Virus record (IMG/VR): IMGVR_UViG_2693429599_000012
Coordinates: 1 to 36,043 of that record
DNA from: a virus
Taxonomy: Duplodnaviria > Heunggongvirae > Uroviricota > Caudoviricetes
DNA: 36,043 nucleotides
Direction: 5' to 3' (one strand)
In this document: positions 7,571 through 35,052 of the stretch, one piece after another
Numbering within the stretch: the stretch's first letter is position 1
Layout: every line of letters begins with the position of its first letter
Position numbers and translations under genes: made by a program
The notes under the pieces: model-generated
The model's input: the letters and a program-made list of their open reading frames with translations, nothing else
Databases searched by the model: none
What the model was told of the DNA's origin: nothing

Positions 7571-9475
7571 ATGAAACTAATTTCTAATAAGGCCAAATTA
7601 AAAAAGATTCTTAAAAATATCTCTGCTGCAATTCGACCGCCTAAAGCCATGAAACCTAGCGAATGGGTAGAGGCTAATGTAGTTGCTACCGATGGTGTTA
7701 AAGCCGGATCGCTAATTAAATTGCATCCCTTCCAACGTGGAATGATGGACGCGATCACCGAAGACCGTAGAAAAATTGTGTTTAAATGTTCGGCGCAGTT
7801 GGGTAAGACCATGATTCTTAACGGAATTATCTTCCATCGGATCGCGAGTAACCCTACTAATATTGGGGTCTTGCAAAGTAACGTTAGGGAACTAAATTCT
7901 TGGATCGCTGGTAAGGTGAAGCCAGTATTAGAGGCAACGCCAGAATTAAAAGCGATGATCACCGACAAATCAGATCGCAATGCCGTTAACAACTCATCGA
8001 TTATTCAGCTTCGTAACGGATCGTTTATGTATTTCATGTCGTTGAATAGTCCGTCACATCTTCGCGGTAAAACACTCCCTTTGATTATTCTTGATGAAGT
8101 TGATGCGGCTGATGAGTCAGACGAAGGGAACCCGATCCAGCTAGCGGAACAACGCGCAACCACTTTCGGGGAAGATGCAAGGATCGTAATTGCTTCCACT
8201 CCAACCGCTCGTGATGGGGCGATTAACCAACAATGGGAACTCTCGGATAAGAGAAAATATCATGTCGTTTGCCAGCATTGCGGACACAAGCACGTAATGG
8301 AATGGAGTAACGTACATTTCGATTGGCATACGATTAACGGTAAATCATTACCCAACCCAGATACAGCCGTTTACCGTTGCCCTGAATGTGAAACCGACTG
8401 GACCGAAGGGGATCGCCTCCGTGCTGTTGCTCAGGGAGAATGGGTCGCCACCGAACCTAATGCGGAAGTAATCGGTTTTCATGCTAACCGCCTTATGTCT
8501 CCGTTTAGTTCTATCCGTGCGTGTGTGGTGGACTTTGCTGATAGCTACGCGAATATGTCGCTGGCAACGTTCTATAATGTGGTGCTCGGTGAAACCTTCG
8601 ATGATCTTAACGAAGATCGCACAGCCGACGAACTGGAAACGCTGAAAACTGATATTAGCCTAGACAATATTCCTGATGATGTACTGGCTCTGGTAGGTGG
8701 AGTTGACCAGCAAAAAGACCGTCTGGAATCTACCTTGCTGGGTATCTCTCGTAAGGGGATATGCGTAGTTGATCACCGATCATTCTATGATGTGAACTGC
8801 GAACGCCACGAATCGCCAGCATATGACCAGCTTTATAACTTCCTGAAAGCGAAATTCTATACCCGATCCGGTGAACGAATCCCGATGCTATCTGCTTTCG
8901 TGGACTCATCGAACGGACGAGCTACAAACGTGATCTACCGTTTTTGCACTAGGTGGCAAAACCTATGCGCCATTAAAGGCGCAAGTAATGCTGATGCTCC
9001 AATCCTTCCGGCTAAGGACACAAGAACGGGTGGTTTTACCCTTAAAATTCTGGGCGTAAACAACCTTAAAACGATGATCCGTGAAATGATTAACCGGAAC
9101 TTGAGAGACAGCGATCCTCATACGGTCTTCCAGATTGGCGACGTTCCTGATGACTATTGCGAGCAATTGCTTTCTGAACAGTTGAAACGGCAGGGTAATA
9201 CCACACGTTGGGTAAAAGTTGGTCAGCAACGAAACGAGGCTCTCGACTGCCTGGCTTATTCCTATGCTGCTTCTCGCCATGTACTCAATAAAATGTCATG
9301 GGAAAAACTCGAAGCCATCAAAGATAGTTTGAACCGTGAACCAGAAGAATCCGTAGAAGCTCCTAAATCGCAATCTGACGAGAAAATAGAAGAAACTAAG
9401 CCAATCACACGACCACAACGTAAAAACATCGCCAGACGCCCAAATAGAGGCCGTAGCTGGGTAACATCGTTCTAA
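7571..9475 (+). CDS. Terminase large subunit (lambda GpA-like)
   Basis: Walker A-like KCSAQLGKT and Walker B-like LIILDEVD; HPFQRGMMDAI near the N-terminus; 634 aa; positioned upstream of the portal gene. Confidence 0.85.
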   Translation: MKLISNKAKLKKILKNISAAIRPPKAMKPSEWVEANVVATDGVKAGSLIKLHPFQRGMMDAITEDRRKIVFKCSAQLGKTMILNGIIFHRIASNPTNIGVLQSNVRELNSWIAGKVKPVLEATPELKAMITDKSDRNAVNNSSIIQLRNGSFMYFMSLNSPSHLRGKTLPLIILDEVDAADESDEGNPIQLAEQRATTFGEDARIVIASTPTARDGAINQQWELSDKRKYHVVCQHCGHKHVMEWSNVHFDWHTINGKSLPNPDTAVYRCPECETDWTEGDRLRAVAQGEWVATEPNAEVIGFHANRLMSPFSSIRACVVDFADSYANMSLATFYNVVLGETFDDLNEDRTADELETLKTDISLDNIPDDVLALVGGVDQQKDRLESTLLGISRKGICVVDHRSFYDVNCERHESPAYDQLYNFLKAKFYTRSGERIPMLSAFVDSSNGRATNVIYRFCTRWQNLCAIKGASNADAPILPAKDTRTGGFTLKILGVNNLKTMIREMINRNLRDSDPHTVFQIGDVPDDYCEQLLSEQLKRQGNTTRWVKVGQQRNEALDCLAYSYAASRHVLNKMSWEKLEAIKDSLNREPEESVEAPKSQSDEKIEETKPITRPQRKNIARRPNRGRSWVTSF

Positions 9476-10052: not shown

Positions 10053-11564
10053 ATGTTTAATCTTTTTCGACGCAAAAAGGCGGTAGAAACTCCAGTTAAA
10101 ACTAATCACCGCCAGCAACAACCAAAAATTTTCATCGACAAACAAGTAGAAAAATTCCAGAAAGATTTGTCTAAGCGTTCTTTGGGCTTGGTCGGTGATC
10201 GCATTGATGGATCACTTCAACAAGACACCATTACAGGAACCTTCAATAAGGCTCTCAAATCGAACGGTAAGCGTCTTTATGATCAGGGTCGTACTCTGGC
10301 CTTAAACACTTCCGTTGGCAGTCGCTACACGCAATACATCACCGATATGGTGGTTGCTACTGGCCTAGATCCTAAGCCGTCAATCGTTAAATCAAATGGC
10401 AAACTTGATAGCGCACTGAATAAGCAGATCGAGAATGCTTTCTGGAAGTGGGCGCAGAACGCTAAACGCTTCTCTCGTAACGGTCGTTTTAACTTCCGTG
10501 AACTGCTGGTAATGGCTGAACGTGAGCGCGTTATGGGTGGTGAGTGCTTCATCGTTTTAACCAAAGAAAACAATGAGTTAAATGTTTCTATCCTGTCTGC
10601 TGATAAGTGCGACTGGTCGCTCAACCGTGAAGTAAGCAAAGACCGTGCGATATTTCAGGGGATTGAGTATGACGTAGAAACAATGCGCCCTGTTGCATAC
10701 TGGTTTCGTAAAGTCAATCTACTGACTCAGACCTACACAGGTGATAACTATCGTGTCGAGGCTTCGCAAGTATGCCATTATTATCAACCACTTACGGCTG
10801 AATCTCTGCGTGGTGTGACTGACTTCCTACCAGTGATCAAGGATATCGCACATCAAGACGCATTCCGCGAAACTGCAATTATCCAGAAACGCATTGCAGC
10901 TAGCTCTATGGGCTTTATCGAACGTCCGAAAGATTCTGGTGACGATTTTGATACTGGCGAAGATGAAGACCAATATCAAGTGCCGGAAGTAGTACAGGAT
11001 TTTGCACCGGGTACTATTCAGGAATTGCCGGAAGGGGCAACGATTAAATCAATCCAAGCTACTCAATCAGGCGATGACTTTAACAGCTTCAATGATGCGA
11101 TGTTCACTAGCGTATCAATGGGCTTAGGCGTGTTTAAACAGGGCTTGACTGGTGATACTTCCCAGATCAACTACAGCGCCGCGCGTTTTGGTGAATTAAC
11201 TCAGCGTAACCGCGTTAAAGCACTGCAAAACAAATTAATTGAAACAGTGGTATTGCCAATTTTCGAAGCATATCTACGCCATTATTCCGCGCGTGGTATT
11301 GTTCCGATTCGTATTACTGCAATTCCGCATATTATCGATAACACTACTATTATTCGTCCGCGTTTTGAATCCGTCGATCCATTTAAAGACGTAAGCGCCG
11401 AGATTGCTTTAATTGATAACGGACTTAAATCACGTACTGCCGTTATTCTTGAACGTGGTGATGATCCTGAAAAAGTATTCTCAGAGATTCAAGCCGAAAA
11501 GAGCGCACTAAATATTATCGTTAATGGCGAGGGTGAAGAAAAAAATTCCCCAGCCGATCCCTAA
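10053..11564 (+). CDS. Portal protein
   Basis: 503 aa; immediately downstream of the terminase large subunit and upstream of the protease-capsid gene; acidic segment DSGDDFDTGEDEDQYQ. Called mainly from size and synteny. Confidence 0.7.
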   Translation: MFNLFRRKKAVETPVKTNHRQQQPKIFIDKQVEKFQKDLSKRSLGLVGDRIDGSLQQDTITGTFNKALKSNGKRLYDQGRTLALNTSVGSRYTQYITDMVVATGLDPKPSIVKSNGKLDSALNKQIENAFWKWAQNAKRFSRNGRFNFRELLVMAERERVMGGECFIVLTKENNELNVSILSADKCDWSLNREVSKDRAIFQGIEYDVETMRPVAYWFRKVNLLTQTYTGDNYRVEASQVCHYYQPLTAESLRGVTDFLPVIKDIAHQDAFRETAIIQKRIAASSMGFIERPKDSGDDFDTGEDEDQYQVPEVVQDFAPGTIQELPEGATIKSIQATQSGDDFNSFNDAMFTSVSMGLGVFKQGLTGDTSQINYSAARFGELTQRNRVKALQNKLIETVVLPIFEAYLRHYSARGIVPIRITAIPHIIDNTTIIRPRFESVDPFKDVSAEIALIDNGLKSRTAVILERGDDPEKVFSEIQAEKSALNIIVNGEGEEKNSPADP

Positions 11565-11609
11565 TAACCAACGGGGGCGCAATGCCCCCAATTAATTAAA
11601 GGTGATTAA

Positions 11610-13610
11610 ATGCTTAAATTTCGCCGCGAACTTAACGGTTACGGTGGAGTTATTAACGAAGGGCATAACGATCAATACGAATTTGAAATTGCTTTCTCCA
11701 GTGAACAGCCTTATCAGCGCCAATTCTGGGATGAGCAAAATCAAGAAATGGTGGTATTAGATGAAATTCTGGTACATACACCGGAAGCGGTTGATCTGTC
11801 TCGTCTGAATAATAACGCTCCGTTGCTGTTTAATCATAATTTCGATAATCACATTGGCGTCGTTTGTAACGCTCGAATCGATGCGGATAAAGTAGGCCGT
11901 GCGACCGTTAGATTCTCTAAGCATGGCACTTTGGCTAATGATATTCGCAATAAAGTCATTGAAGGTACGATGGAAAAAATTTCTGTCGGTTATGACATTA
12001 AAGAATATCACATCGATTATGCCAAAGGACAATTGATTGTTACTAAGTTTGTTCCTTTCGAATTAAGTTTTGTTACGGTCCCGGCGGACGATTCGGTCGG
12101 TTTAAATCGCTCTCTAAATACTATCACAGTTAATTTGGAGGCTAAACGCGATATGACTAAAGAACAAATTGAAGAAATCAAAGAAGAACAAGAATCCGCT
12201 CAGGTTGAAGAAACTCCGGTAGAAGAAAATAAAGAATCGGAAGTAGAAGAAACTCAAGAGCGCCAAGTTGAAGAGAATGAAGAAAATGAAAATCTCGAAG
12301 ACGGAAAAGACGCTGAACATCCTGAAAGTGTTGATGATGATAGTTCAACTGTTCGGGAAGCAGAAGAAGTAAAAGAAGAACGTGAAGCCGCTCCGGTTGA
12401 AGAAGAAAAAACCGAGGAAGTGGCTGAACGTTCCGAAGAAGACGAATTAGAAATCCGCGAGATCGCGCGGGAACTAAATATTGACGACGAAGAATTAAAA
12501 CGCGCATTGGCAATTAAAGACATGACGCCGGAAGCATTCCGCACTAAGGCACTAAATAACATTACCAATGCTCAACGTAATAACGAACAAATTAAGGAAT
12601 CTAAAATGGAAAAAACTTTTGACCTGAACAACGTAATTCGCTCTCTGGTAGATGGTGCTGCTCTGGGTGCTAACGAAGCCGAGTTTTCTGCTATGGCTGC
12701 TGGTGCTGCAATGCAGCGTGGTCGTGCTGCTCGTGGTGGCTCTGTATTCGTTCCGACTGCTGCTATGCGTGCTGCTGCTGATGGTAACACCAAAACTACT
12801 CTGGAAGCTGTAACCGACGAAAAACTGCTGAATGATTCCTATGTAGCGATGCTGTTACCGGAATCCGTTCTGGGTCGTCTTGGTGTGAAAGTCCTGTCTG
12901 GTCTGACTTCGCCGACTGCTATTCCGAAAATGACCGCTTCCAGCGTTGAATCTTTCGGCTTCGTTGATGAAAACGGTGCTGCACCGGAAGGTAAAGCAGA
13001 ATTTGCAAACGTGAAAATGGCTCCGAAAACTTTTGCTGGTGGCAACCCGATCAGCCGTCAGTCTCTGAAAACCGTTCCGGGCATCGCTACCCTGATCACT
13101 GATCACATTAACCAGGCTGTTCGCATCAAACTGGAACAACTGATTCTGTCTGATAAAGATAATGCTCGTGGTCCGGCTGGTGTGATTAAACAACTGGTTG
13201 ATGCAAGCCGTGTTGAGAAGAAAGCTGCTTTCTCTTACAAAGACTTCCTGAAAGAAATCGCTAAACTGACCGACGCTGGCGTTCCTGCTCAGGCGATCAA
13301 GTTTGCGATGAGCGGTGCAACTGCTGCTGAACTGGAATCTACCCTGAAAGATAACGGCGTTTCCGGTTATATCATCGAAAACGGTAAACTGGCTGGTTAC
13401 GAAGTAGTTACTTCTGGTGTTATTCCGGTAGACCACATCGTTCTGGGTGACTTCTCCGCTATTACCATCGGTGAATGGGGCGGTCTTGAGCTAGATCTGG
13501 ACGATTCAACCTACAGAGCACAGGGCGCGATCGTTCCGCGTATCTGGGTAGATCTGGATTATGTTGTTACTCAGCCGGAAGCTCTGAAAGTTCTTCACAT
13601 CTCCGAATGA
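11610..13610 (+). CDS. Fused prohead protease (HK97/U35-like), acidic scaffold-like linker and major capsid protein
   Basis: N-terminal ~170 aa carry protease-like motifs (ISVGY, ELSFVTVPADDSVG); residues ~180-300 are a highly acidic, repetitive linker; the C-terminal ~350 aa look like an HK97-fold capsid protein. Confidence 0.75.
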   Translation: MLKFRRELNGYGGVINEGHNDQYEFEIAFSSEQPYQRQFWDEQNQEMVVLDEILVHTPEAVDLSRLNNNAPLLFNHNFDNHIGVVCNARIDADKVGRATVRFSKHGTLANDIRNKVIEGTMEKISVGYDIKEYHIDYAKGQLIVTKFVPFELSFVTVPADDSVGLNRSLNTITVNLEAKRDMTKEQIEEIKEEQESAQVEETPVEENKESEVEETQERQVEENEENENLEDGKDAEHPESVDDDSSTVREAEEVKEEREAAPVEEEKTEEVAERSEEDELEIREIARELNIDDEELKRALAIKDMTPEAFRTKALNNITNAQRNNEQIKESKMEKTFDLNNVIRSLVDGAALGANEAEFSAMAAGAAMQRGRAARGGSVFVPTAAMRAAADGNTKTTLEAVTDEKLLNDSYVAMLLPESVLGRLGVKVLSGLTSPTAIPKMTASSVESFGFVDENGAAPEGKAEFANVKMAPKTFAGGNPISRQSLKTVPGIATLITDHINQAVRIKLEQLILSDKDNARGPAGVIKQLVDASRVEKKAAFSYKDFLKEIAKLTDAGVPAQAIKFAMSGATAAELESTLKDNGVSGYIIENGKLAGYEVVTSGVIPVDHIVLGDFSAITIGEWGGLELDLDDSTYRAQGAIVPRIWVDLDYVVTQPEALKVLHISE

Positions 13611-13807
13611 ACTAACGTAGAACCTTCTGAACCTTCCCCCGATTTGGGGGAAGAAAATCTGATTCCATCTCAGGAAGAAGAATCCCAGACGGTTACGGCG
13701 AAAGCCCCAGCTAAAAAGGTGGGACGTCCACCGAAAGCAAAATAATAATTAGCCCTGCCTAACGGTGGGGCTTTTTTGTATGTAAATACTCCATAAAGGG
13801 GGTAACT

Positions 13808-14513: not shown

Positions 14514-15347
14514 ATGAATATTACACAAGATAACTTAGACATTTTCACGGGGTCACATGTTGAAGTCTCCGTGTCTACTATGGTGGATAACCAGCCGGAC
14601 TTTTTCGATCCTGCATTTAGTCCTATCGAGAACATCGCAGCATTCCCTACGATCACCGAATCTACAGAGATCCAGACGTTAGAAGAGTATGACCAGGACG
14701 CTACGGGGAAACTTGCTGGTTATCGTAAACTGGAACCGACAACACTCACGTTAAACCGTGTTCTGGATGACGAACATCAAGACATGTTGATGAAAGCGGT
14801 GAATGATAAAACACCTTTACGCTTCCGAATGTTCTATGTTGTGAACTCTGGCTATAGTGCTGCTAACACTGGTTACTATGTCATCTATGATGCTTACGTC
14901 ACATCACATAAAACCCGTGGTAGCGATAACAAAGTTACTACCATCGAATTTAAATTAGATCCTGATGGTGGGATTCTCGACCGTGGTATTGCCACCGAAG
15001 GCCGGATCTTACGTCAAGGTGATTTTGGTTTGGGTGCTGGTGTACATCCATTCACAGGTCCGATTGATAGCGAAGCATTAGCCGGAAACCGTTTCGTAAC
15101 TTATCAGGGATCGAGCGCATCTAATCCATTTAGTGCTGATACTTCACTAATTCACGTTCAACCTAATGAAGATGGTGGATGGCAATTAACTTGCACCGCT
15201 TCCGGCGCACCACGTTTACGAGTTCGCACAGTCCAGAAAGACGGTAATTCTGGATGGGTGAAAGTGTATTCCACAGAAGAAAAACCGACACCAGCCGAGA
15301 TTGAAGCCGTTTCTATCCATGACCGGATCGACTTCGGGGAATACTGA
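14514..15347 (+). CDS. Tail protein with lambda gpV-like N-terminal pattern and C-terminal extension (candidate major tail protein)
   Basis: The N-terminal ~140 aa follow a major-tail-protein-like pattern; the C-terminus carries EEKPTPAEIEAVS, shared with the downstream fiber (GDKPTPAEIGAYS). Confidence 0.4.
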   Translation: MNITQDNLDIFTGSHVEVSVSTMVDNQPDFFDPAFSPIENIAAFPTITESTEIQTLEEYDQDATGKLAGYRKLEPTTLTLNRVLDDEHQDMLMKAVNDKTPLRFRMFYVVNSGYSAANTGYYVIYDAYVTSHKTRGSDNKVTTIEFKLDPDGGILDRGIATEGRILRQGDFGLGAGVHPFTGPIDSEALAGNRFVTYQGSSASNPFSADTSLIHVQPNEDGGWQLTCTASGAPRLRVRTVQKDGNSGWVKVYSTEEKPTPAEIEAVSIHDRIDFGEY

Positions 15348-15420: not shown

Positions 15421-18400
15421 ATGCAGTCGATCCAATTTAAACGAACTAATGTTTCTGGCAAAAAGCCAACGCCGGAACAATTACAGGTCGGTGAGGTGGC
15501 AATCAACCTTAAAGACCATGTTATTTTTACCAAAGACCGAGATCATGAAGTAGTTCAAATCTCTGTTTCTCCTGAAACTCACGCGGCACTAGAATCTAAA
15601 GTTGATGCTAACAAACAAGAATTGGATAGCACAATTGCAGTAAATGACCGCAATATTCACGCTAAAGTAGATGAAATTAAACAAACTACTGATTCTACTA
15701 TCGCAGCAAATCATGCAGAAATTAACAATAAAGTTGATGTAATTAAACGCGAAACCGACGCGACAATCGAAGCTAATAAAAATAAAGCTGCTTCCGATCT
15801 TGCTGGTGTTAAAGCTGAATTGTCGGATACCATCAACGCTAATAAAAATGCGGCTGCTGTAGCAACTCAGGAACTGGACACCCGCATCAATAAAAAAGTT
15901 GATGATATTAAATCCCGTACAGATGCAACCATCGCAAGCAATGACAAAGCAATCAATGACAAAGTTGATTTGATTAAGACAGAAACTGACCGCACTATCG
16001 CAGCAAATAAAGTCTATGCGGAAAATCAGTTAACTGACACCTACAATAACCTTACTGGTGTGATTGCAGCCAATAAGCAAGAGGCAGCGGATAACGTTGC
16101 GGCATTAACCCGTGATGTTGAAGCCAAAAATACAGCAATTCATAGCAAAGTTGACAATAACAAGTCTTACACTGATTCTGAACTGGCACGTTTAGAAAGC
16201 CGTATTGATGCAGCCGATGGATCTGCTGATGGCAAGTACATCAAAAAACACGTAAACACTTATACTGATGGTTATTTGCTGTCTAAGACCGCAAACTATT
16301 TTGATGATCCAAATGCGCGTAATCTTGATTACTTTGGTGCATTCCGCATGAATGACCTGGCGGGTCATATTGCAATGATCTTGCATGTTCCGCATCCATC
16401 TGGTGTTAATCATGCTCGTGGCTTTGAGTTCACTTATGGGTCTAATCCGGTTCATACGGTAAGAACATACGGCTATGATGAATTGGGTCATTTGGCATAT
16501 TCTCACCGCATGTATCATGAAGGTGATAAACCTACTCCTGCCGAAATTGGCGCATATTCGAAAGCAGAAATTGACCGACTGTTCCAGAAGACGCTTAATT
16601 TTGGGATCGAGGGTGGTTGGTTTAAACTAGGCACTTTGACAATGCCACAGCAACACGGTCGTAGTGCTAAGATCCGCTTAGTTGGTGGTAACGGTTATAA
16701 CGTCGGGATGAATGGACAAGCCAATATTATCGAATTGGTGATTCGATGCGGCAACAATAGCCCGAAAGGTGTTGTATTCAATGCGTATTATACTATTTGG
16801 CATTATGAACAACATTTTTGCGCTATTCCAACCGATGGCGACAATTACGATCTTTACGCTTACTACGGTGCACATACAGGATTTGTTTTAGCAGAATATC
16901 AAGTTTCTTCCGGTGGTGTTTCTTTAAACCTGTTGGATACTCCTGAATATCTGGGTGGTGAAAAACCTGTTGCAGATGAAATTTTTGATGCTCTTAACAT
17001 TTCATCGTTCAATAACTTTAGCAACCGTGGAACGTTAAATTTTGCGGGAAACCATCAAGGCCAATACGACATTGAGCATTTGAACGAACAACAAACAAAT
17101 GCTAAGAAAATGTTGCGTCGCTTCCGTAGTTCTGCTCCTGCCACTATCTGGCACGAAAGTGTTGATGACCAAAATTATCGTCTTGCTACTGGATATACCG
17201 ATGTAAACCAACAATTATTGCTTTCAGTTGCGACCGGTTTGCATATTCGTAGATTGACCATCGATGGTGGCTTAGGTTCCGGTTCTAATGCTGGTATTGA
17301 TATTCGTCGAGGACCAAACGAAGCAAGCCATTTTAATTTCATGGATTATCGCACTGGACAAGATGTTCGTAATGGCTGGTTTGGTTTTGGTGATTTGACG
17401 ACCAAAGATTTTATTTGGTGGAACGATAACGGTCAAAACTCTATAAACCTGATTGAAGATGGTGAATTACATATTACTGGTGGTAAAGGCCAGAAAATTG
17501 TAATGAATAGCGAAGTTGCATTATCTGAAAATGCTCGTTTGGCTGTCAAAGGCGGTAACTATGGTTTGATGTTACGCAATGATGGTTCTAGCTTCCATAT
17601 TCTTACTACCGATTTAAAAGATTCTTTTGGTAGTTGGAATAATCGCAGACCATTTAGTTATGATTTCGCCGAAGGTGGATTAGATCTAGGTGGTACTGAA
17701 ACTGCTCGTTGTTTGCATCTGGGGATCGATGGTAGTACCCGCATCGAAGATAACTTAGTTTTCAGAGCGGGATCACGTCAATCAATGGACTATATTGAAA
17801 TGATCCATTGGGGTAACAGTAATACAGGACGCAACAACGTTTTGAGTATGCGGGATTCCAAAGGATTCTTGGCTGAATTTGAACGTGTAGGCGGGACCAA
17901 CGGCGTTAAAACCAGATTCTTTGGTGAAACCTTCACTGACGGTACATTATACCTAAATCAGATGAATAATAGCTCTGAACGATTCTCTATCAATAATTGG
18001 GGAAATTCAGAAGTTGGTCGCGCGGCAGTGATGGAAGTCGGTGATTCCAAAGGTTATCACTTCTATACGGAACGTAGGACAGATGACACCGTTTTGTTTG
18101 ATGTATCCGGTTCTTTGACCGTGCATGGACCTAACGGAATAACCGTCAAAAACTCAACTGGTGCACGCCATATCTGGTTTAGAGATGATAGCGATACGGA
18201 AAAGGCTGTTATCTGGGCTACAGATGAGGGTATGTTACATATACGAAATAATCATGAGGGTTCATTTGCTCATCACTTCCAGGGCGCAATGATTAAACTG
18301 GAAGGGCGTGTTCCTTATGCCGCAGATCAAGGACTTATCCGTGGTGAGGTTTCTGGTGGTGCATATGTTGCATGGAGAGACCGACCTGCTGGTTTGTTGG

Positions 18401-18951
18401 TTGACTGTCAACAAAGCGTTGATAGTGCTCATGCTATTTGGAAAGCGGTTGATTGGGGTCGTCAATATATCGCAGCAATGGATGTGCATTGTCCCGGTGA
18501 TGGTAATAATACTGCGGCAGCGGTTCTTCATGTTCAGGCTGCTGATTATCAATTCCATGCAAGCGGAGAATTTCATGCCAGTGGCAACGGAAACTTTAAC
18601 GATGTGTATATTCGTTCTGACCGTCGTCTGAAAATTAACGTTGAAGACTACGAAGAAAATGCGGTAGATAAGGTAAATAAACTCAAAGTTAAAACCTACG
18701 ATAAAGTTAAATCTCTTAATGACCGAGAAGTTATAGGTCATGAGATTGGTATTATCGCACAGGATTTACAAGAGGTATTACCGGAAGCTGTTAAAACCGC
18801 AAAAATTGGTGGTCTTGATAACCCAGAAGAAATTTTAACAATTTCAAACTCCGCAGTGAACGCGCTTTTAATTAAAGCGGTCCAAGAAATGAGCGAAGAA
18901 AATAAACTTCTTCGTGAACGTCTTGCTGCAATTGAAGCTAAATTAGGGTAA
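15421..18951 (+). CDS. Side (L-shaped type) tail fiber protein with C-terminal intramolecular chaperone / peptidase S74 domain
   Basis: 1176 aa; N-terminal KRTNVSGKKPTPEQLQVGEVAINLKD; internal ~20-aa tandem repeats (KVDxIKxxTDxTIAAN, 4-5 copies); C-terminal ~120 aa YIRSDRRLKINVEDYEENAVDKVNKLKVKTYD...LLRERLAAIEAKLG is typical of S74 autoproteolytic chaperone domains. Confidence 0.8.
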   Translation: MQSIQFKRTNVSGKKPTPEQLQVGEVAINLKDHVIFTKDRDHEVVQISVSPETHAALESKVDANKQELDSTIAVNDRNIHAKVDEIKQTTDSTIAANHAEINNKVDVIKRETDATIEANKNKAASDLAGVKAELSDTINANKNAAAVATQELDTRINKKVDDIKSRTDATIASNDKAINDKVDLIKTETDRTIAANKVYAENQLTDTYNNLTGVIAANKQEAADNVAALTRDVEAKNTAIHSKVDNNKSYTDSELARLESRIDAADGSADGKYIKKHVNTYTDGYLLSKTANYFDDPNARNLDYFGAFRMNDLAGHIAMILHVPHPSGVNHARGFEFTYGSNPVHTVRTYGYDELGHLAYSHRMYHEGDKPTPAEIGAYSKAEIDRLFQKTLNFGIEGGWFKLGTLTMPQQHGRSAKIRLVGGNGYNVGMNGQANIIELVIRCGNNSPKGVVFNAYYTIWHYEQHFCAIPTDGDNYDLYAYYGAHTGFVLAEYQVSSGGVSLNLLDTPEYLGGEKPVADEIFDALNISSFNNFSNRGTLNFAGNHQGQYDIEHLNEQQTNAKKMLRRFRSSAPATIWHESVDDQNYRLATGYTDVNQQLLLSVATGLHIRRLTIDGGLGSGSNAGIDIRRGPNEASHFNFMDYRTGQDVRNGWFGFGDLTTKDFIWWNDNGQNSINLIEDGELHITGGKGQKIVMNSEVALSENARLAVKGGNYGLMLRNDGSSFHILTTDLKDSFGSWNNRRPFSYDFAEGGLDLGGTETARCLHLGIDGSTRIEDNLVFRAGSRQSMDYIEMIHWGNSNTGRNNVLSMRDSKGFLAEFERVGGTNGVKTRFFGETFTDGTLYLNQMNNSSERFSINNWGNSEVGRAAVMEVGDSKGYHFYTERRTDDTVLFDVSGSLTVHGPNGITVKNSTGARHIWFRDDSDTEKAVIWATDEGMLHIRNNHEGSFAHHFQGAMIKLEGRVPYAADQGLIRGEVSGGAYVAWRDRPAGLLVDCQQSVDSAHAIWKAVDWGRQYIAAMDVHCPGDGNNTAAAVLHVQAADYQFHASGEFHASGNGNFNDVYIRSDRRLKINVEDYEENAVDKVNKLKVKTYDKVKSLNDREVIGHEIGIIAQDLQEVLPEAVKTAKIGGLDNPEEILTISNSAVNALLIKAVQEMSEENKLLRERLAAIEAKLG

Positions 18952-18989
18952 TTGGAAAGCGGGGAGAAATCTCCGCTAAGGATTCTTAT

Positions 18990-19286
18990 ATGGGATATTG
19001 GGTAAGTAGTGAAATTAATACTAAAATCGATGCTTTAAAATGGCATGTATTTGATATTCCTAACGGCTATGGTACTGCTCGTGCTGGTGTCGCTGTAATG
19101 CGTCATAATGCTGGTGGTGGGTGGTCTGATGCACATATTAACGTAGATGGTTTGACCGTTGCTCGTCGTCGTGGTGGGACCAATTGGGGATCTACTATAA
19201 ATTCGTTTGTTCCTGCTGGCTGCACCGTCTCCTTTGGTTTAGGGGGTGAAGGTGGTGTTGAATATTTTAAATTCATGGAGTTTTAA
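18990..19286 (+). CDS. Small protein, paralog 1 of 3 (98 aa), unknown function
   Basis: AAGGA RBS; shares W..FDIPNG(Y/W) and a C-terminal TVSF.LG...YFKF motif with the next two genes. Confidence 0.6.
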   Translation: MGYWVSSEINTKIDALKWHVFDIPNGYGTARAGVAVMRHNAGGGWSDAHINVDGLTVARRRGGTNWGSTINSFVPAGCTVSFGLGGEGGVEYFKFMEF

Positions 19287-19288
19287 TT

Positions 19289-19594
19289 ATGGCTGGATGG
19301 ATAAATCAAAGAATGTCAAACGCTATTAGTATTTGGGCTAATGGTGGATATTTTGATATCCCCAACGGTTGGGTCACTGATTCATGCGGAATTGTCTTTG
19401 CTCATATGGAAGCCATTAACGGTGCTGGTGATCTTGATTCTGAATTGGCTGTAAATGGATTGATTGAATCAGGCCATCATGCTGGTGATGCTGGGAGTTG
19501 GGGTGCTAGTTCTTTAGTTGGCGCTGGTGCTACCGTTAGCTTTACATTGGGTAAAGGTAGTTTGCATTATTTCAAATTCAGGAGAATGCACTAA
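19289..19594 (+). CDS. Small protein, paralog 2 of 3 (101 aa), unknown function
   Basis: GGAG RBS; start 3 nt after the stop of paralog 1; YFDIPNGW and ATVSFTLGKGSLHYFKF. Confidence 0.6.
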   Translation: MAGWINQRMSNAISIWANGGYFDIPNGWVTDSCGIVFAHMEAINGAGDLDSELAVNGLIESGHHAGDAGSWGASSLVGAGATVSFTLGKGSLHYFKFRRMH

Positions 19595-19896
19595 TGGCAT
19601 TTTGGGTAGATGGCGCTTTGGGGAATAGGGCGGGTAAAGCAAATCAAGGATGGTTTGATATTCCTAACGGTTGGACAGCCGACGCTTTCGGGACTATTTC
19701 ATTCTGTGCTCATTCTTCCGGTGGTGGCGGCGGTGACTCTGAATTGTTTATTCATGGTTTTTGTGTTTCTGGAAGCCATAAGGGTCATGATTGGGGACAG
19801 ATCCATTCTTGTATTGCACCGCAAGGAGCAGTAATTACAGTTAGCACAAATAGGGGGATCGCTCATCTTCGTTATAGACGTTTGAGCAATCGCTAA
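19594..19896 (+). CDS. Small protein, paralog 3 of 3 (100 aa), unknown function
   Basis: AGGAGA RBS; start overlaps the stop of paralog 2 (TAATG); WFDIPNGW motif; Gly-rich SSGGGGGD. Confidence 0.6.
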   Translation: MAFWVDGALGNRAGKANQGWFDIPNGWTADAFGTISFCAHSSGGGGGDSELFIHGFCVSGSHKGHDWGQIHSCIAPQGAVITVSTNRGIAHLRYRRLSNR

Positions 19897-19950
19897 ATAA
19901 ATAGAATTACGGGTATGTACCCTATTGTTTAAAATAGAAGGAAAAGAATA

Positions 19951-20424
19951 ATGACTACTAAATTTGATATTTTTTCTGGTGGCCTCGTTGGTCTGTTTCT
20001 GCAAGAAGACGTAAGCAATAAAGACCTTGATGCTGAAACCTATCTGGAAATCCCAGAATGCGCAGCGTTCCCGGAAACTGGTGTAGAACGTTCTACTATC
20101 GATGTTCCTAACTTCTCTGGTGCTTATAACCGTAAGCTGGTTGGTCGTATGTCTGTACCTGATATCGAACTTTCGATCAACTACATTCCGGGTAACGAAG
20201 TACACGAAAAACTGATTAAAGCAACCGAAGACGGTAAGCGCGTACAGCTTAAAATTGCTTACTACATCGATGCTACGAAAAAATCTGGTGTACATATCGC
20301 TTATAACGGCTTCCTGTCTAAAACTACCATGACTGGTGGTGAGGATGCTGTAGTAGGCCGTACCTTCACCTTTGTAGTAGATGGTGCTCCGGTTAAACAA
20401 GCTGTTTTCCAGAAAGTCGTCTAA
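19951..20424 (+). CDS. Tail tube-like protein (157 aa), second candidate major tail protein
   Basis: Strong RBS; immediately upstream of the G/G-T chaperone genes; followed by a strong terminator, as expected of a highly expressed structural gene. Confidence 0.5.
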   Translation: MTTKFDIFSGGLVGLFLQEDVSNKDLDAETYLEIPECAAFPETGVERSTIDVPNFSGAYNRKLVGRMSVPDIELSINYIPGNEVHEKLIKATEDGKRVQLKIAYYIDATKKSGVHIAYNGFLSKTTMTGGEDAVVGRTFTFVVDGAPVKQAVFQKVV

Positions 20425-33354: not shown

Positions 33355-35034
33355 TTAAATTCCAAATTCCTGTAATGGACCTGGTATTTCCTCTTCTGGT
33401 TTCCAGTTCTTATCTGTCAGCATGTCTAAACATGGATGCAAAACAAGCCCGTTACTTTCCAGAATCTGTCTATCATTGATAGTTTTCAAATCAACGAAGA
33501 TCCGGCCTTTCCTCGGTCCTCTTGAATTTTCTATTACAACTCTCTGGGTCTTGCCATCGATGTATTCCAGTACAAACAAGTTTTTGTACTTGTCAATCCT
33601 GCTACACCCGATCCGTTTTAGAGCTTGCTTAATCTTAAACCGGACCTTAATGCGATCCTCGTTGTAAACATCTTCTAAATCAAATTCTGCGAGCTTCTCC
33701 CAGCCTTGAGAGTCAACAGAATACATTTCCTCTTCTGCCATCTTAATTTGATTGTAGAGTGTTTCACGCTCGCTATTGAGGGTAGTAATCTGATCGGCTA
33801 GCTCCTTCGTTGCTCCTGTCATAGCAGAAAGGGTAATCAGGTTATCAATCTTGCGTGATATTTCATCAATCTGTACTTTCAAAGCCGGAACCGGATTAGC
33901 CTTATCCTCAGCAATCCAGATTTTATCAGCCAGCAATTGCAATACAGCTTTCTCTAATTGATCACCTCGAAAACTCCAGTTTGTATGCACACATGCAATA
34001 CGACTAGAGCGCATTGCATCGCATGAATAACGATATTGGTTAGGACGTTTGTTAGTTCCTTTCACCTTAACCATAGCGGAACCGCAATGTTCACATTTCA
34101 ATAGACCAACACCACTAAGCAAGGGAATAGGTTTAACTTCTTCCTTGTCTCCATAGTTACATGCTCTAACACCAATGCTTTTCTTAAGGTGATAAAACTC
34201 AGCGTCATCTAGCACACGAGGATAATAATCCTTTAACTCATACTTAACGCCATCTACAGAGATTTCCTTGATACCAATCAAAGCGCGGGTATGGAACAAC
34301 CTTTCAATCATTGCCCGTGACCAGTTTGAATGCCTCTTGTGACTTGCGGCTGGTGGTGGTGTGTATGTCGCGTTAAGGTGATCCAGTATCTCGGCGGTTG
34401 ACCGTCCATTCCTGCGTAATTCCACAACTTCCTGAACAATAGGGAAGAAGACCGGATGAGGAAGCACATAACCAGATGTGGTATCAGTCCACCACATATT
34501 CTTTCCAATTTCCTCGATTGCAACAGCCGGATTTTGTGGATTTTCTTGATGAGCTTTAATCTTAATCAATGCGCTTGAGTTAGTACGATTGCGCTTAGTC
34601 TGACTTTCCTCGTTAGCTCTCGCAAACAACATGACACTCAACAGCAAATCAATAGGATTGGCATTAACCGATTCCTTGCTATAGACCTTACCATCCATGC
34701 CAGTTACGATAGTTATTCCCCTACGGATAATCGAGAGAAATAGCTCTTGTGCTTCAATGATGGATTGGCGAGAGATACGGTCTAAGTTTTCCACAACCAG
34801 CCAGCTACCAACCGGAACGGATCGACCAATCTCATCCAGAAAGCGAGATAGTGCACCTGTTCTACTGTTAGCCCCTTTGAATGCAGATACACCAAAATCC
34901 TGATAGCTTGTAACTAGCTCAAGATCATATTTTGCGGCTATCTCTGCGGCTGTTCTCTTCTGGCGTTCATAAGAACTACCATCCGCTTGCTTCATAGACG
35001 AGAAGCGAATATACGAATACAGTTTAGTTTTCAT
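33355..35034 (-). CDS. Large serine recombinase (integrase-type)
   Basis: N-terminal resolvase-type catalytic motif YSYIRFSSMKQADGSSYERQ (catalytic Ser in FSS); recombinase domain; zinc-ribbon-like CEHCGS...YRYSCDAMRSSRIAC; C-terminal coiled coil. Start placed at ATG complement 35032-35034 (the track's 35049 start is TTG). Confidence 0.85.
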   Translation of the reverse strand: MKTKLYSYIRFSSMKQADGSSYERQKRTAAEIAAKYDLELVTSYQDFGVSAFKGANSRTGALSRFLDEIGRSVPVGSWLVVENLDRISRQSIIEAQELFLSIIRRGITIVTGMDGKVYSKESVNANPIDLLLSVMLFARANEESQTKRNRTNSSALIKIKAHQENPQNPAVAIEEIGKNMWWTDTTSGYVLPHPVFFPIVQEVVELRRNGRSTAEILDHLNATYTPPPAASHKRHSNWSRAMIERLFHTRALIGIKEISVDGVKYELKDYYPRVLDDAEFYHLKKSIGVRACNYGDKEEVKPIPLLSGVGLLKCEHCGSAMVKVKGTNKRPNQYRYSCDAMRSSRIACVHTNWSFRGDQLEKAVLQLLADKIWIAEDKANPVPALKVQIDEISRKIDNLITLSAMTGATKELADQITTLNSERETLYNQIKMAEEEMYSVDSQGWEKLAEFDLEDVYNEDRIKVRFKIKQALKRIGCSRIDKYKNLFVLEYIDGKTQRVVIENSRGPRKGRIFVDLKTINDRQILESNGLVLHPCLDMLTDKNWKPEEEIPGPLQEFGI

Positions 35035-35052
35035 ACCATTTCCAAACAAAAA

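Follow-up and report, generated by a model that had tools for sequence, protein, structure and literature searches.

Gene organization and domain layout

The window analysed here is the whole 36,043-nt stretch of the IMG/VR virus record IMGVR_UViG_2693429599_000012 (Caudoviricetes), and the gene in question lies at positions 11610..13610 (+), where a single open reading frame (ORF) with an ATG start, 666 codons and 0 internal stops joins a prohead protease, an acidic linker and a major capsid protein. It serves head maturation and encodes the capsid in a temperate, so far uncharacterised E. coli prophage, and is located directly after a lambda-type portal gene. The portal gene (10053..11564; lambda family; PF05136, E 2e-62) ends 45 nt upstream of the fusion ORF, and a gene for a GpA-type large terminase (7571..9475) is found upstream of both. 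From the codon adaptation of the ORF and its conserved internal initiation signals, here it is proposed that the frame holds nested genes, of which the inner one, encoding the capsid protein, would be the abundantly translated one. The features of the gene and its immediate flanks are as follows.

11572..11590 (+): G+C-rich hairpin with a GGGGGCGCAATGCCCCC core, between the portal stop codon and the ribosome-binding site of the fusion ORF; seen in the sequence and in the minimum free energy (MFE) fold
11600..11606 (+): Shine-Dalgarno (SD) sequence AGGTGAT of the annotated start Met1 (ATG 11610); read from the sequence
11610..13610 (+): full-length ORF, 666 aa, 73.4 kDa, pI 4.6, with protease, acidic linker, helical segment and capsid
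11610..12113 (+): prohead serine protease domain, aa 1-168 (folded core aa ~21-165)
11835-11837, 11982-11984 and 12060-12062 (+): catalytic-type residues His76, Ser125 and Glu151, respectively
12114..12434 (+): acidic, predicted-disordered linker, aa 169-275, net charge -30, pI 4.05; from the AlphaFold2 (AF2) model and composition
12137..12155 (+): candidate internal start 1, GGAGG (12137-12141), an 11-nt spacer and the in-frame ATG 12153 (Met182)
12435..12605 (+): conserved helical scaffold-like segment, aa 276-332 (helices 276-288, 293-301, 307-335); AF2
12593..12608 (+): candidate internal start 2, the main one, TAAGGA (12593-12598), a 7-nt spacer and the in-frame ATG 12606 (Met333)
12606..13610 (+): putative nested in-frame capsid ORF, Met333-Glu666, 334 aa, 35.1 kDa, codon adaptation index (CAI) 0.70
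12606..12800 (+): predicted propeptide (aa 333-397), the short helical extension with which the nested product would begin; AF2 and the chain start in phage R4C
12801..13607 (+): HK97-fold capsid domain, aa 398-666, 28.6 kDa; Pfam, phmmer and Foldseek
13751..13772 (+): intrinsic terminator 3' of the capsid gene, with a 9-bp stem, 6 G-C pairs and a T-run; terminator scan

Both Pfam domains score above their cut-offs, Peptidase_S78 (PF04586) at aa 40-162 (41.4 bits, cut-off 21) and Phage_capsid (PF05065) at aa 410-663 (89.5 bits, cut-off 24.2), so that the protease and capsid homology proposed in the initial annotation of this DNA was recovered by profile search. The protease motifs that it had placed at the N-terminus, ISVGY (aa 124-128) and ELSFVTVPADDSVG (aa 151-164), are present there, together with the S78 profile match. 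The full-length AF2 model, with a predicted local distance difference test (pLDDT) score of 76, has five regions: a folded protease (aa 21-165), a disordered stretch (aa 169-272), a group of helices (aa 276-288, 293-301 and 307-335), a second group of helices (aa 339-348, 354-369 and 383-390) followed by a flexible stretch with low pLDDT (aa 392-408), and a confident capsid domain from aa 409 onward.

Distribution of the single open reading frame

An identical protein is present in NCBI under the name 'phage major capsid protein [Escherichia coli]', and the 120 homologues listed at 95-100% identity to the window protein are all 664-670 aa long with both Pfam domains. The region was found in 55 of 5,426 complete E. 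coli genomes, always in the chromosome, and 48 complete E. coli genomes have no less than 80% of the 5 kb surrounding the gene; in IMG/VR, 32 contigs carry the region at 88-96% identity. The single ORF is kept in more than 100 E. coli/Shigella variants. About 110 further loci with 24-49% identity belong to enterobacteria, Prochlorococcus, Desulfovibrio, Aliarcobacter, Verrucomicrobia and many metagenomes. Among the 136 related loci in which both domains are detectable, 134, from many phyla, have them in one ORF, and the two exceptions have them in different, overlapping frames that look frameshifted. An exhaustive search of 1.84 billion cluster representatives (50% identity) returned 402 clusters at E<=1e-30, the top 150 of which are nearly all 560-700 aa long and nearly all fusions. 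The initial description of one 666-aa ORF with protease, acidic linker and capsid therefore holds, and the undetected stop or frameshift it had allowed for is answered by the same single ORF in the 120 listed homologues and in complete genomes.

A sequencing artefact or hidden stop was rejected on account of the identical NCBI protein, the independent genomes and the 134/136 one-ORF loci. The broader explanation of the long ORF as an assembly or sequencing artefact, or as a pseudogene fusion of two genes, is extremely improbable, as identical or near-identical ORFs occur in hundreds of independent assemblies, the architecture is kept down to 24% identity over 134 loci and many phyla, and the catalytic residues are under purifying selection in the family; in its favour, some copies are decaying, with a frameshift in the variant L037 and insertion sequence (IS) elements in several genomes and next to the truncated relative P0146.

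The decaying copies (L037; H42, H44, H55; L149-L152) include the L037 frameshift, which falls in the capsid gene, and IS1, IS903B and ISKpn26 insertions in the head region of three complete genomes. P0146, from a relative at 47% identity, consists of protease and linker (297 aa) and was considered as a natural split form of the gene, which was rejected because an IS3-family insertion cuts the gene after the linker. Two other records are unusual in their context. A family member with 27% identity (L044, NZVG01000010.1) is on a 27-kb contig of a metagenome-assembled genome labelled 'Methanobacteriota archaeon', which points either to faulty binning or to an archaeal virus with a protease-capsid fusion. 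Escherichia phage DCP80 (L002, PQ671644.1) is a 141-kb record filed under Straboviridae/Tevenvirinae, which at 1.7-13 kb encodes a GpA-type terminase, a lambda-type portal and a 666-aa fusion homologue (43% identity), all named 'hypothetical protein'; this record may be a chimeric assembly or mis-filed.

There is nothing unusual in the protease-linker-capsid architecture, which databases already catalogue. The protein has a full-length match to PHROG 617 ('major head protein'; E 3.7e-89, profile positions 24-621 of 626), and PHROG 4523 bears the name 'major head and protease protein'. The NCBIfam model NF045541 (scaf_prot_MCP2, 'prohead protease/major capsid protein fusion protein') matches aa 22-349 with 128.6 bits against a cut-off of 525, a score that relates the window protein to this family but leaves it outside. 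For the homologues in Xanthomonas phage Murka and Pseudomonas phage PPpW-3, the annotation names both capsid and protease, and the window protein is 26-32% identical to those of named phages with fusion genes. A 'capsid polyprotein' with autocatalytic cleavage is also a reading found in the literature, for example for PAJU2 as cited in PMC8306868. Because PHROG, NCBIfam and the literature already hold them, the architecture and the polyprotein idea of the initial annotation restate existing knowledge.

Protease, acidic linker and capsid domains

The N-terminal domain is an HK97/S78-family prohead serine protease that looks active. His76 and Ser125 align with His65 and Ser114 of HK97 gp4, the 49-aa spacing being identical in both, and are invariant across 129 family members. 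The domain has a herpesvirus assemblin-like fold. The narrower TIGR01543 equivalog gave 33.3 bits, under its cut-off of 59.

The linker has pLDDT below 50 at aa 169-182 and 191-272, and Glu makes up 29% of aa 171-332. Of the Glu-rich repetitive segment described initially, the Glu-richness stands and the repetition does not, since Tandem Repeats Finder (TRF) detected only weak repeats of 9-24 nt with 2-3 copies in the acidic DNA; the segment is a low-complexity sequence, not a true tandem array. It is the most variable part of the protein, with 31% variable columns vs 14% in the capsid, and the internal indels among the 120 listed close variants are all of 1-2 codons and within aa 191-326, mostly in the linker. 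A large length polymorphism of the acidic DNA among close relatives was rejected on the basis of these small indels. The linker is net-acidic in 94% of family members and its length between two conserved anchors varies family-wide from 46 to 195 aa, about four-fold, which lends some support to the suggestion that this DNA is recombination-prone or length-variable; among close relatives the indels speak against it, and overall it is weakly supported. In the following helical segment, the motif E-I-x-x-I-(A/G)...(T/S)-x-(E/D)-x-F-(R/K) is kept from E. coli to the phages R4C and VP882.

The C-terminal domain matches TIGR01554 (major_cap_HK97; 71.6 bits, cut-off 27.5) and, by phmmer against PDB, 8gta (E 4e-24). 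Foldseek matched the capsids of R4C, phiXacJX1, RcGTA, D3 and HK97 (E 1e-19 to 1e-11), with probability 1.00 for R4C, RcGTA, D3 and HK97. In the profile alignment, the HK97 crosslink residue Lys169 is opposite Ala458 and Asn356 is beyond the aligned range; given Ala458 at the Lys169 position, the capsid would be expected to lack the HK97-type chainmail.

Loss of the N-terminal part is directly supported by R4C. Its gp6 (L001) is a 629-aa fusion ORF, of which the capsid chain in the PDB, 8gta_A, comprises the C-terminal 268 aa, from the equivalent of about aa 398 in the window protein onward. For proteolytic activity of the S78 domain, this truncated mature chain is indirect evidence. The R4C cryo-electron microscopy paper and the PDB entry present this 268-aa capsid chain and leave the protease, the cleavage and the missing 361 residues unmentioned. 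Cleavage probably occurs within the flexible aa 392-408 of the window protein, where the N-arm would also begin, and Arg387, shortly before this stretch, is conserved in 123/129 proteins. The HK97 cleavage site Lys103/Ser104 was not located on the window protein, as the profile alignment stopped short of it and the pairwise alignment was too weak. The initial annotation had proposed autoproteolytic loss of ~300 aa; N-terminal removal is borne out by the mature R4C chain, and the trimmed part of the full-length form is expected to be larger, about 385-405 aa.

Codon adaptation along the gene

The two halves of the ORF differ two-fold in codon adaptation to E. coli, the CAI being 0.36 over codons 1-332 and 0.70 over the remaining 333-666. 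The best change-point falls at codon 329-330 (0.354 before it, 0.702 after it), a step reached by 0/300 permutations. Without Glu and Lys codons, the CAI is 0.27, 0.27 and 0.68 in the three segments. By raw counts, the major-codon fraction is 0.51 in the N-terminal vs 0.84 in the capsid part (p=5e-16); between the two parts, Leu CTG changes from 4/20 to 25/30, Gly GGT+GGC from 8/12 to 30/30, and Asn AAC from 7/26 to 10/12. The other phage genes in the window have CAI values of 0.23-0.41, the sole other high value being 0.60 for the major tail protein, and in HK97, whose separate protease and capsid genes are known to differ in abundance, the values are 0.33 for gp4, 0.49 for gp5 and 0.43 for the major tail protein. 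CAI thus tracks abundance in the prophage and in HK97 and is a valid proxy here.

Such a step is unexpected for one polypeptide, since a single start gives equal ribosome flux along its whole length. This bears on the pure polyprotein, in which every subunit would be a 73-kDa chain, about 415 copies would assemble with their proteases inside, and autocatalytic cuts would follow. That explanation is compatible with one ORF conserved at 134/136 loci, and it leaves unexplained why 332 codons have a low-copy codon adaptation and the other 334 that of the most abundant virion protein.

The step is common to 31/31 E. coli variants, in which the N-part has a CAI of 0.34-0.39 and the C-part 0.58-0.77, despite 13-22% nucleotide divergence in the capsid half; it is therefore maintained, not recently imported. 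Its position also follows the internal SD-ATG between lineages, as far as codon usage of the relatives is scorable with E. coli weights. The SD-ATG and the step are both at codon 188 in the relatives L078, L079 and L082 and both at 180 in DCP80, and they are at 348 and 347 in L081, at ~297 and ~302 in L038 and L083-L089, and at 333 and 329 in the window. A pure polyprotein gives no reason for a step that moves with the internal SD-ATG.

Between the E. coli variants L006-L036, the capsid half (12810-13607) is the most conserved as protein and the most diverged as DNA when compared with 11610-12605. Median pairwise DNA identity is 0.87 in the capsid half and 0.94-0.95 in protease and linker, and the highest synonymous divergence thus falls in the most codon-adapted part. 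The identities of the two half-genes are discordant between variants (0.99 and 0.85 in L017, 0.92 and 0.96 in L011), from which the halves are taken to recombine as separate modules. These discordant genealogies and different synonymous divergence, and the position of the internal motifs exactly at domain boundaries, are what another explanation would draw on, namely that the internal signals are not starts and are instead folding pause sites or relics of gene fusion, the codon step coming from modular recombination that imported a separate, highly expressed capsid gene. It is quite improbable. All diverged alleles have the high C-part and the low N-part CAI, and no nearby donor with separate genes is evident, as nearly all of the top 150 clusters are fusions; a pause needs neither an in-frame ATG at canonical spacing, nor an A-rich unstructured context, nor Met in 120/120 proteins, and intact relic signals would still initiate translation.

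Candidate internal translation start sites

At the Met333 site, TAAGGA, the 7-nt spacer length and the ATG are invariant in 32/32 distinct variants. Variable columns are 0/9 in the SD and ATG vs 22/49 in the flanks (Fisher p=0.01), where the protein reads KESKM, KDSKM, NKEQIM, NKEKNM or NKESIM, with codon indels just upstream. Met333 is conserved in 120/120 listed proteins, and the Lys codon inside the TAAGGA motif is AAG, though AAA:AAG is 35:6 in the ORF. The frozen TAAGGA-N7-ATG amid variable flanks is a further observation left unexplained by the pure polyprotein. At the Met182 site, the SD is GGAGG in 27/32 variants and GGGGG in 5/32. A start here would give a 485-aa, 52.7-kDa linker and capsid product; no CAI step was found at Met182 in the window (0.269 vs 0.272), and this product may therefore be minor in the window prophage.

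Both sites are in open RNA. The 20 least-structured 63-nt RNA windows of the ORF are only at codons 321-336 and 185-193, the Met333 site being the least structured of all, and in 38/38 diverged relatives the RNA at the internal SD-ATG is less structured than the ORF mean (p=7e-12). The RNA window of the annotated start has an MFE of -5.8 kcal/mol, in the top 15% least structured.

The enrichment extends across the family. Counting strong SDs 3-12 nt upstream of an in-frame start in 129 distinct proteins, their frequency per 1000 codons is 10.9 at the first domain boundary, 17.3 at the second and 1.65 elsewhere, a 6.6- to 10.5-fold enrichment at the two boundaries. AAGGA-N7/N10-ATG is found at the Met333-homologous position in nearly all relatives with 30-40% identity, and relatives that are 30-49% identical have an SD-ATG at the linker/capsid or the protease/linker boundary. 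The latter boundary carries it in DCP80, L075-L082, R4C (GGAGG-N5-ATG188), VP882 (AGGTG-N5-ATG176) and others. The SD is encoded differently by clade, as AAG-GAA, AAA-GGA, ACA-AGG-AAA, TTG-GAG-GCT, TCG-GAG-GAC or GAG-GAG-GCA, in three codon frames; that the frames and amino-acid contexts differ in this way is an argument for selection acting on the RNA.

An internal sigma-70 promoter for the capsid part found no support, with 2 sites vs 3.5 expected by chance. Rfam had no match in the window. No description of internal initiation in protease-capsid fusions was found in the searchable literature, the coverage of which is incomplete.

The region between the portal gene and the fusion ORF (11556-11609) is nearly invariant in 32 variants, among which the SD AGGTGAT is essentially invariant. 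In the MFE fold, GAUCCCU from the end of the portal gene is the pairing partner of this SD (AGGUGAU, 11600-11606), a hint of translational coupling to the portal gene. A specific occlusion of Met1 by RNA structure was rejected, as the SD/portal pairing in the window does not generalise to the 38 relatives. The hairpin at 11572-11590 has a terminator-like score only on the - strand in the terminator scan.

Nested in-frame genes as the proposed organization

Six independent lines of evidence suggest that Met333, at least, is a working initiation site, and the model that best accommodates them, with a probability of roughly 0.6, is one of nested in-frame genes and not of a simple polyprotein. Ribosomes would start rarely at Met1, giving the 73-kDa protease-linker-capsid form as a minority species, and initiation at TAAGGA-N7-ATG (Met333) would be much higher, giving a 35-kDa capsid precursor without protease and linker as the bulk shell subunit; in this prophage, a 53-kDa form of linker and capsid may arise in minor amounts from GGAGG-N11-ATG (Met182). 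The few full-length chains would be built into the shell along with the bulk capsid protein by way of the capsid domain that both have, so that the protease would enter the prohead sub-stoichiometrically, on a flexible acidic tether of about 105 aa. The protease would then remove all N-terminal extensions, of about 390-405 aa in the full-length form and about 55-70 aa in the Met333 form, leaving a mature subunit of ~29 kDa that would begin near residue 390-405 and be without the HK97-type Lys169 crosslink residue.

The same organization probably applies family-wide, with the capsid protein mostly translated from a conserved internal in-frame start and the full-length product a deliberately rare shell subunit tethering the protease. 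The place of the internal start, at the linker/capsid or the protease/linker boundary, would depend on the clade. In the DCP80-like clade, the protease/linker-boundary start is the apparent main internal start, and the abundant form would resemble HK97 gp5 with a long delta-like domain.

Several observations weigh against this proposal. Internal and annotated starts are equally open across the 38 relatives, and a low use of Met1 is unexplained by the sequence, because the annotated start, too, combines a strong SD with open RNA. No internal SD-ATG was found at the capsid boundary of VP882, phiHAP-1, Murka and R4C, and in members with less than 30% identity, from high-GC hosts, SD-ATG is weakly enriched at the first boundary and hardly at all at the second, so that nesting may be clade-specific. 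The CAI was computed with E. coli weights entered without a reference table, with which the raw codon counts agree, and the discordant genealogies of the gene halves imply that modular recombination contributes to their compositional difference. The composite capsid gene of Gifsy-2 has a flat and low CAI with no interpretable step, the major tail protein of the same phage having 0.32, and a generalisation to this ClpP-type gene was set aside because codon adaptation is uninformative there.

Some of these points favour the pure polyprotein, in particular the good SD and open RNA of the annotated start and the distant relatives, mostly without a clear internal SD-ATG at the capsid boundary, and the literature calls such genes autocatalytically cleaved polyproteins (PAJU2, again as cited in PMC8306868). 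By our own estimate, however, about 415 copies of 43 kDa of cargo would take up about half of the interior of a T=7 prohead. The pure polyprotein is thus regarded as doubtful, and the initial annotation, in supposing that all subunits are synthesised as a single polypeptide, is probably mistaken, in view of the CAI step, the conserved SD-ATG, the open RNA and the comparative tracking of step and site.

If true, nested translation would answer a puzzle of stoichiometry, that is, how a shell assembles when each subunit drags a protease and a 40-kDa appendage. The family (about 400 clusters at E<=1e-30, 50%-identity representatives) would be under-annotated and in need of nested coding-sequence features, as many database entries would conflate two or three distinct gene products. 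It would also be a natural design in which minority shell subunits carry cargo on an acidic tether, as engineers of capsid nanocontainers make artificially.

Other features of the window

The window has a G+C content of about 42%, and that of E. coli is typically roughly 51%. The low value is consistent with a prophage of foreign origin, present in about 1% of complete E. coli genomes. Near the right end, a large serine-recombinase-type integrase is encoded at 33355..35049 (-) (phrog_95, E 1e-56).

Window positions ~16507-19912 have 87-89% DNA identity to the long-tail-fibre distal-subunit region of T4-like phages (G37-3, phiS, KFS-EC and others), and the rest of the window between 5000 and 29900 has no match to any isolated phage. 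The T4-like stretch comprises the distal part of a 1176-aa ORF (15421..18951) and the ORFs 18990..19286, 19289..19594 and 19594..19896; an exchange of a T-even-type receptor-binding module with this temperate prophage appears to have taken place. The placement of this module is unusual, between the head genes and the tail-tube gene. Two ORFs match the major tail protein family phrog_158, one at 14514..15347 (277 aa, N-terminal 150 aa matched, CAI 0.32) and the other at 19951..20424 (157 aa, CAI 0.60), which may be paralogues with different roles.

Comparison with known systems

A close counterpart with separate genes is HK97 gp4/gp5, which shares with the window protein the protease family, the His and Ser 49 aa apart, the capsid fold and a capsid N-terminal extension, the removal of which by the protease is predicted for the window protein. 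The gene order of portal, hairpin/terminator, protease, capsid and terminator is also shared, HK97 having putative terminators at the equivalent places, after the portal and after gp5. The protease of HK97 is made in lower amounts than its capsid protein (CAI 0.33 for gp4 vs 0.49 for gp5), as is proposed for the window gene. In HK97, the two are separate genes and the protease is recruited non-covalently, whereas the window has them in one frame with an acidic disordered tether. Also, HK97 has a 103-aa delta domain, and the proposed abundant product of the window would have an extension of ~65 aa.

The same three-part layout with invariant catalytic residues is found in PHROG 617/4523, NF045541, R4C gp6, VP882 gp07, phiHAP-1 ORF5 and Murka gp5, and these catalogued fusions carry just the labels 'major capsid protein' or 'fusion'. 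The best-studied analogue is reportedly the 'tripartite capsid gene' of Gifsy-2 (ClpP-like protease, central domain and capsid protein), which Effantin et al. are said to have described in 2010. ClpP/gpT-like fusions are also known from a Paracoccus prophage (PMC6536676). The Gifsy-2 and Paracoccus fusions share with the window gene a composite ORF after the portal, an N-terminal protease, a centre of 150-200 aa and a C-terminal capsid protein. Both differ in that their protease is of ClpP/S14 type, not S78, without sequence homology to the window protein, which itself had no match to the ClpP family.

For nested translation, the precedents are lambda C/Nu3 and herpes simplex virus 1 (HSV-1) UL26/UL26.5, in which a rare long form has the protease and an abundant short form comes from an internal in-frame start. 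In HFTV1, the nested protease/scaffold gene gp17/gp17.5 was shown by Ribo-seq. The logic proposed as shared with lambda, HSV-1 and HFTV1 is that a common C-terminus targets the protease into the procapsid. In these three, the nested product is a scaffolding protein and the capsid gene is separate, unlike the window, where the nested product would be the capsid protein (scaffold and capsid in the DCP80-like clade) and the protease would be covalently anchored. If true, the nesting principle of lambda C/Nu3 and herpesvirus UL26/UL26.5 would be extended here to the capsid protein itself.

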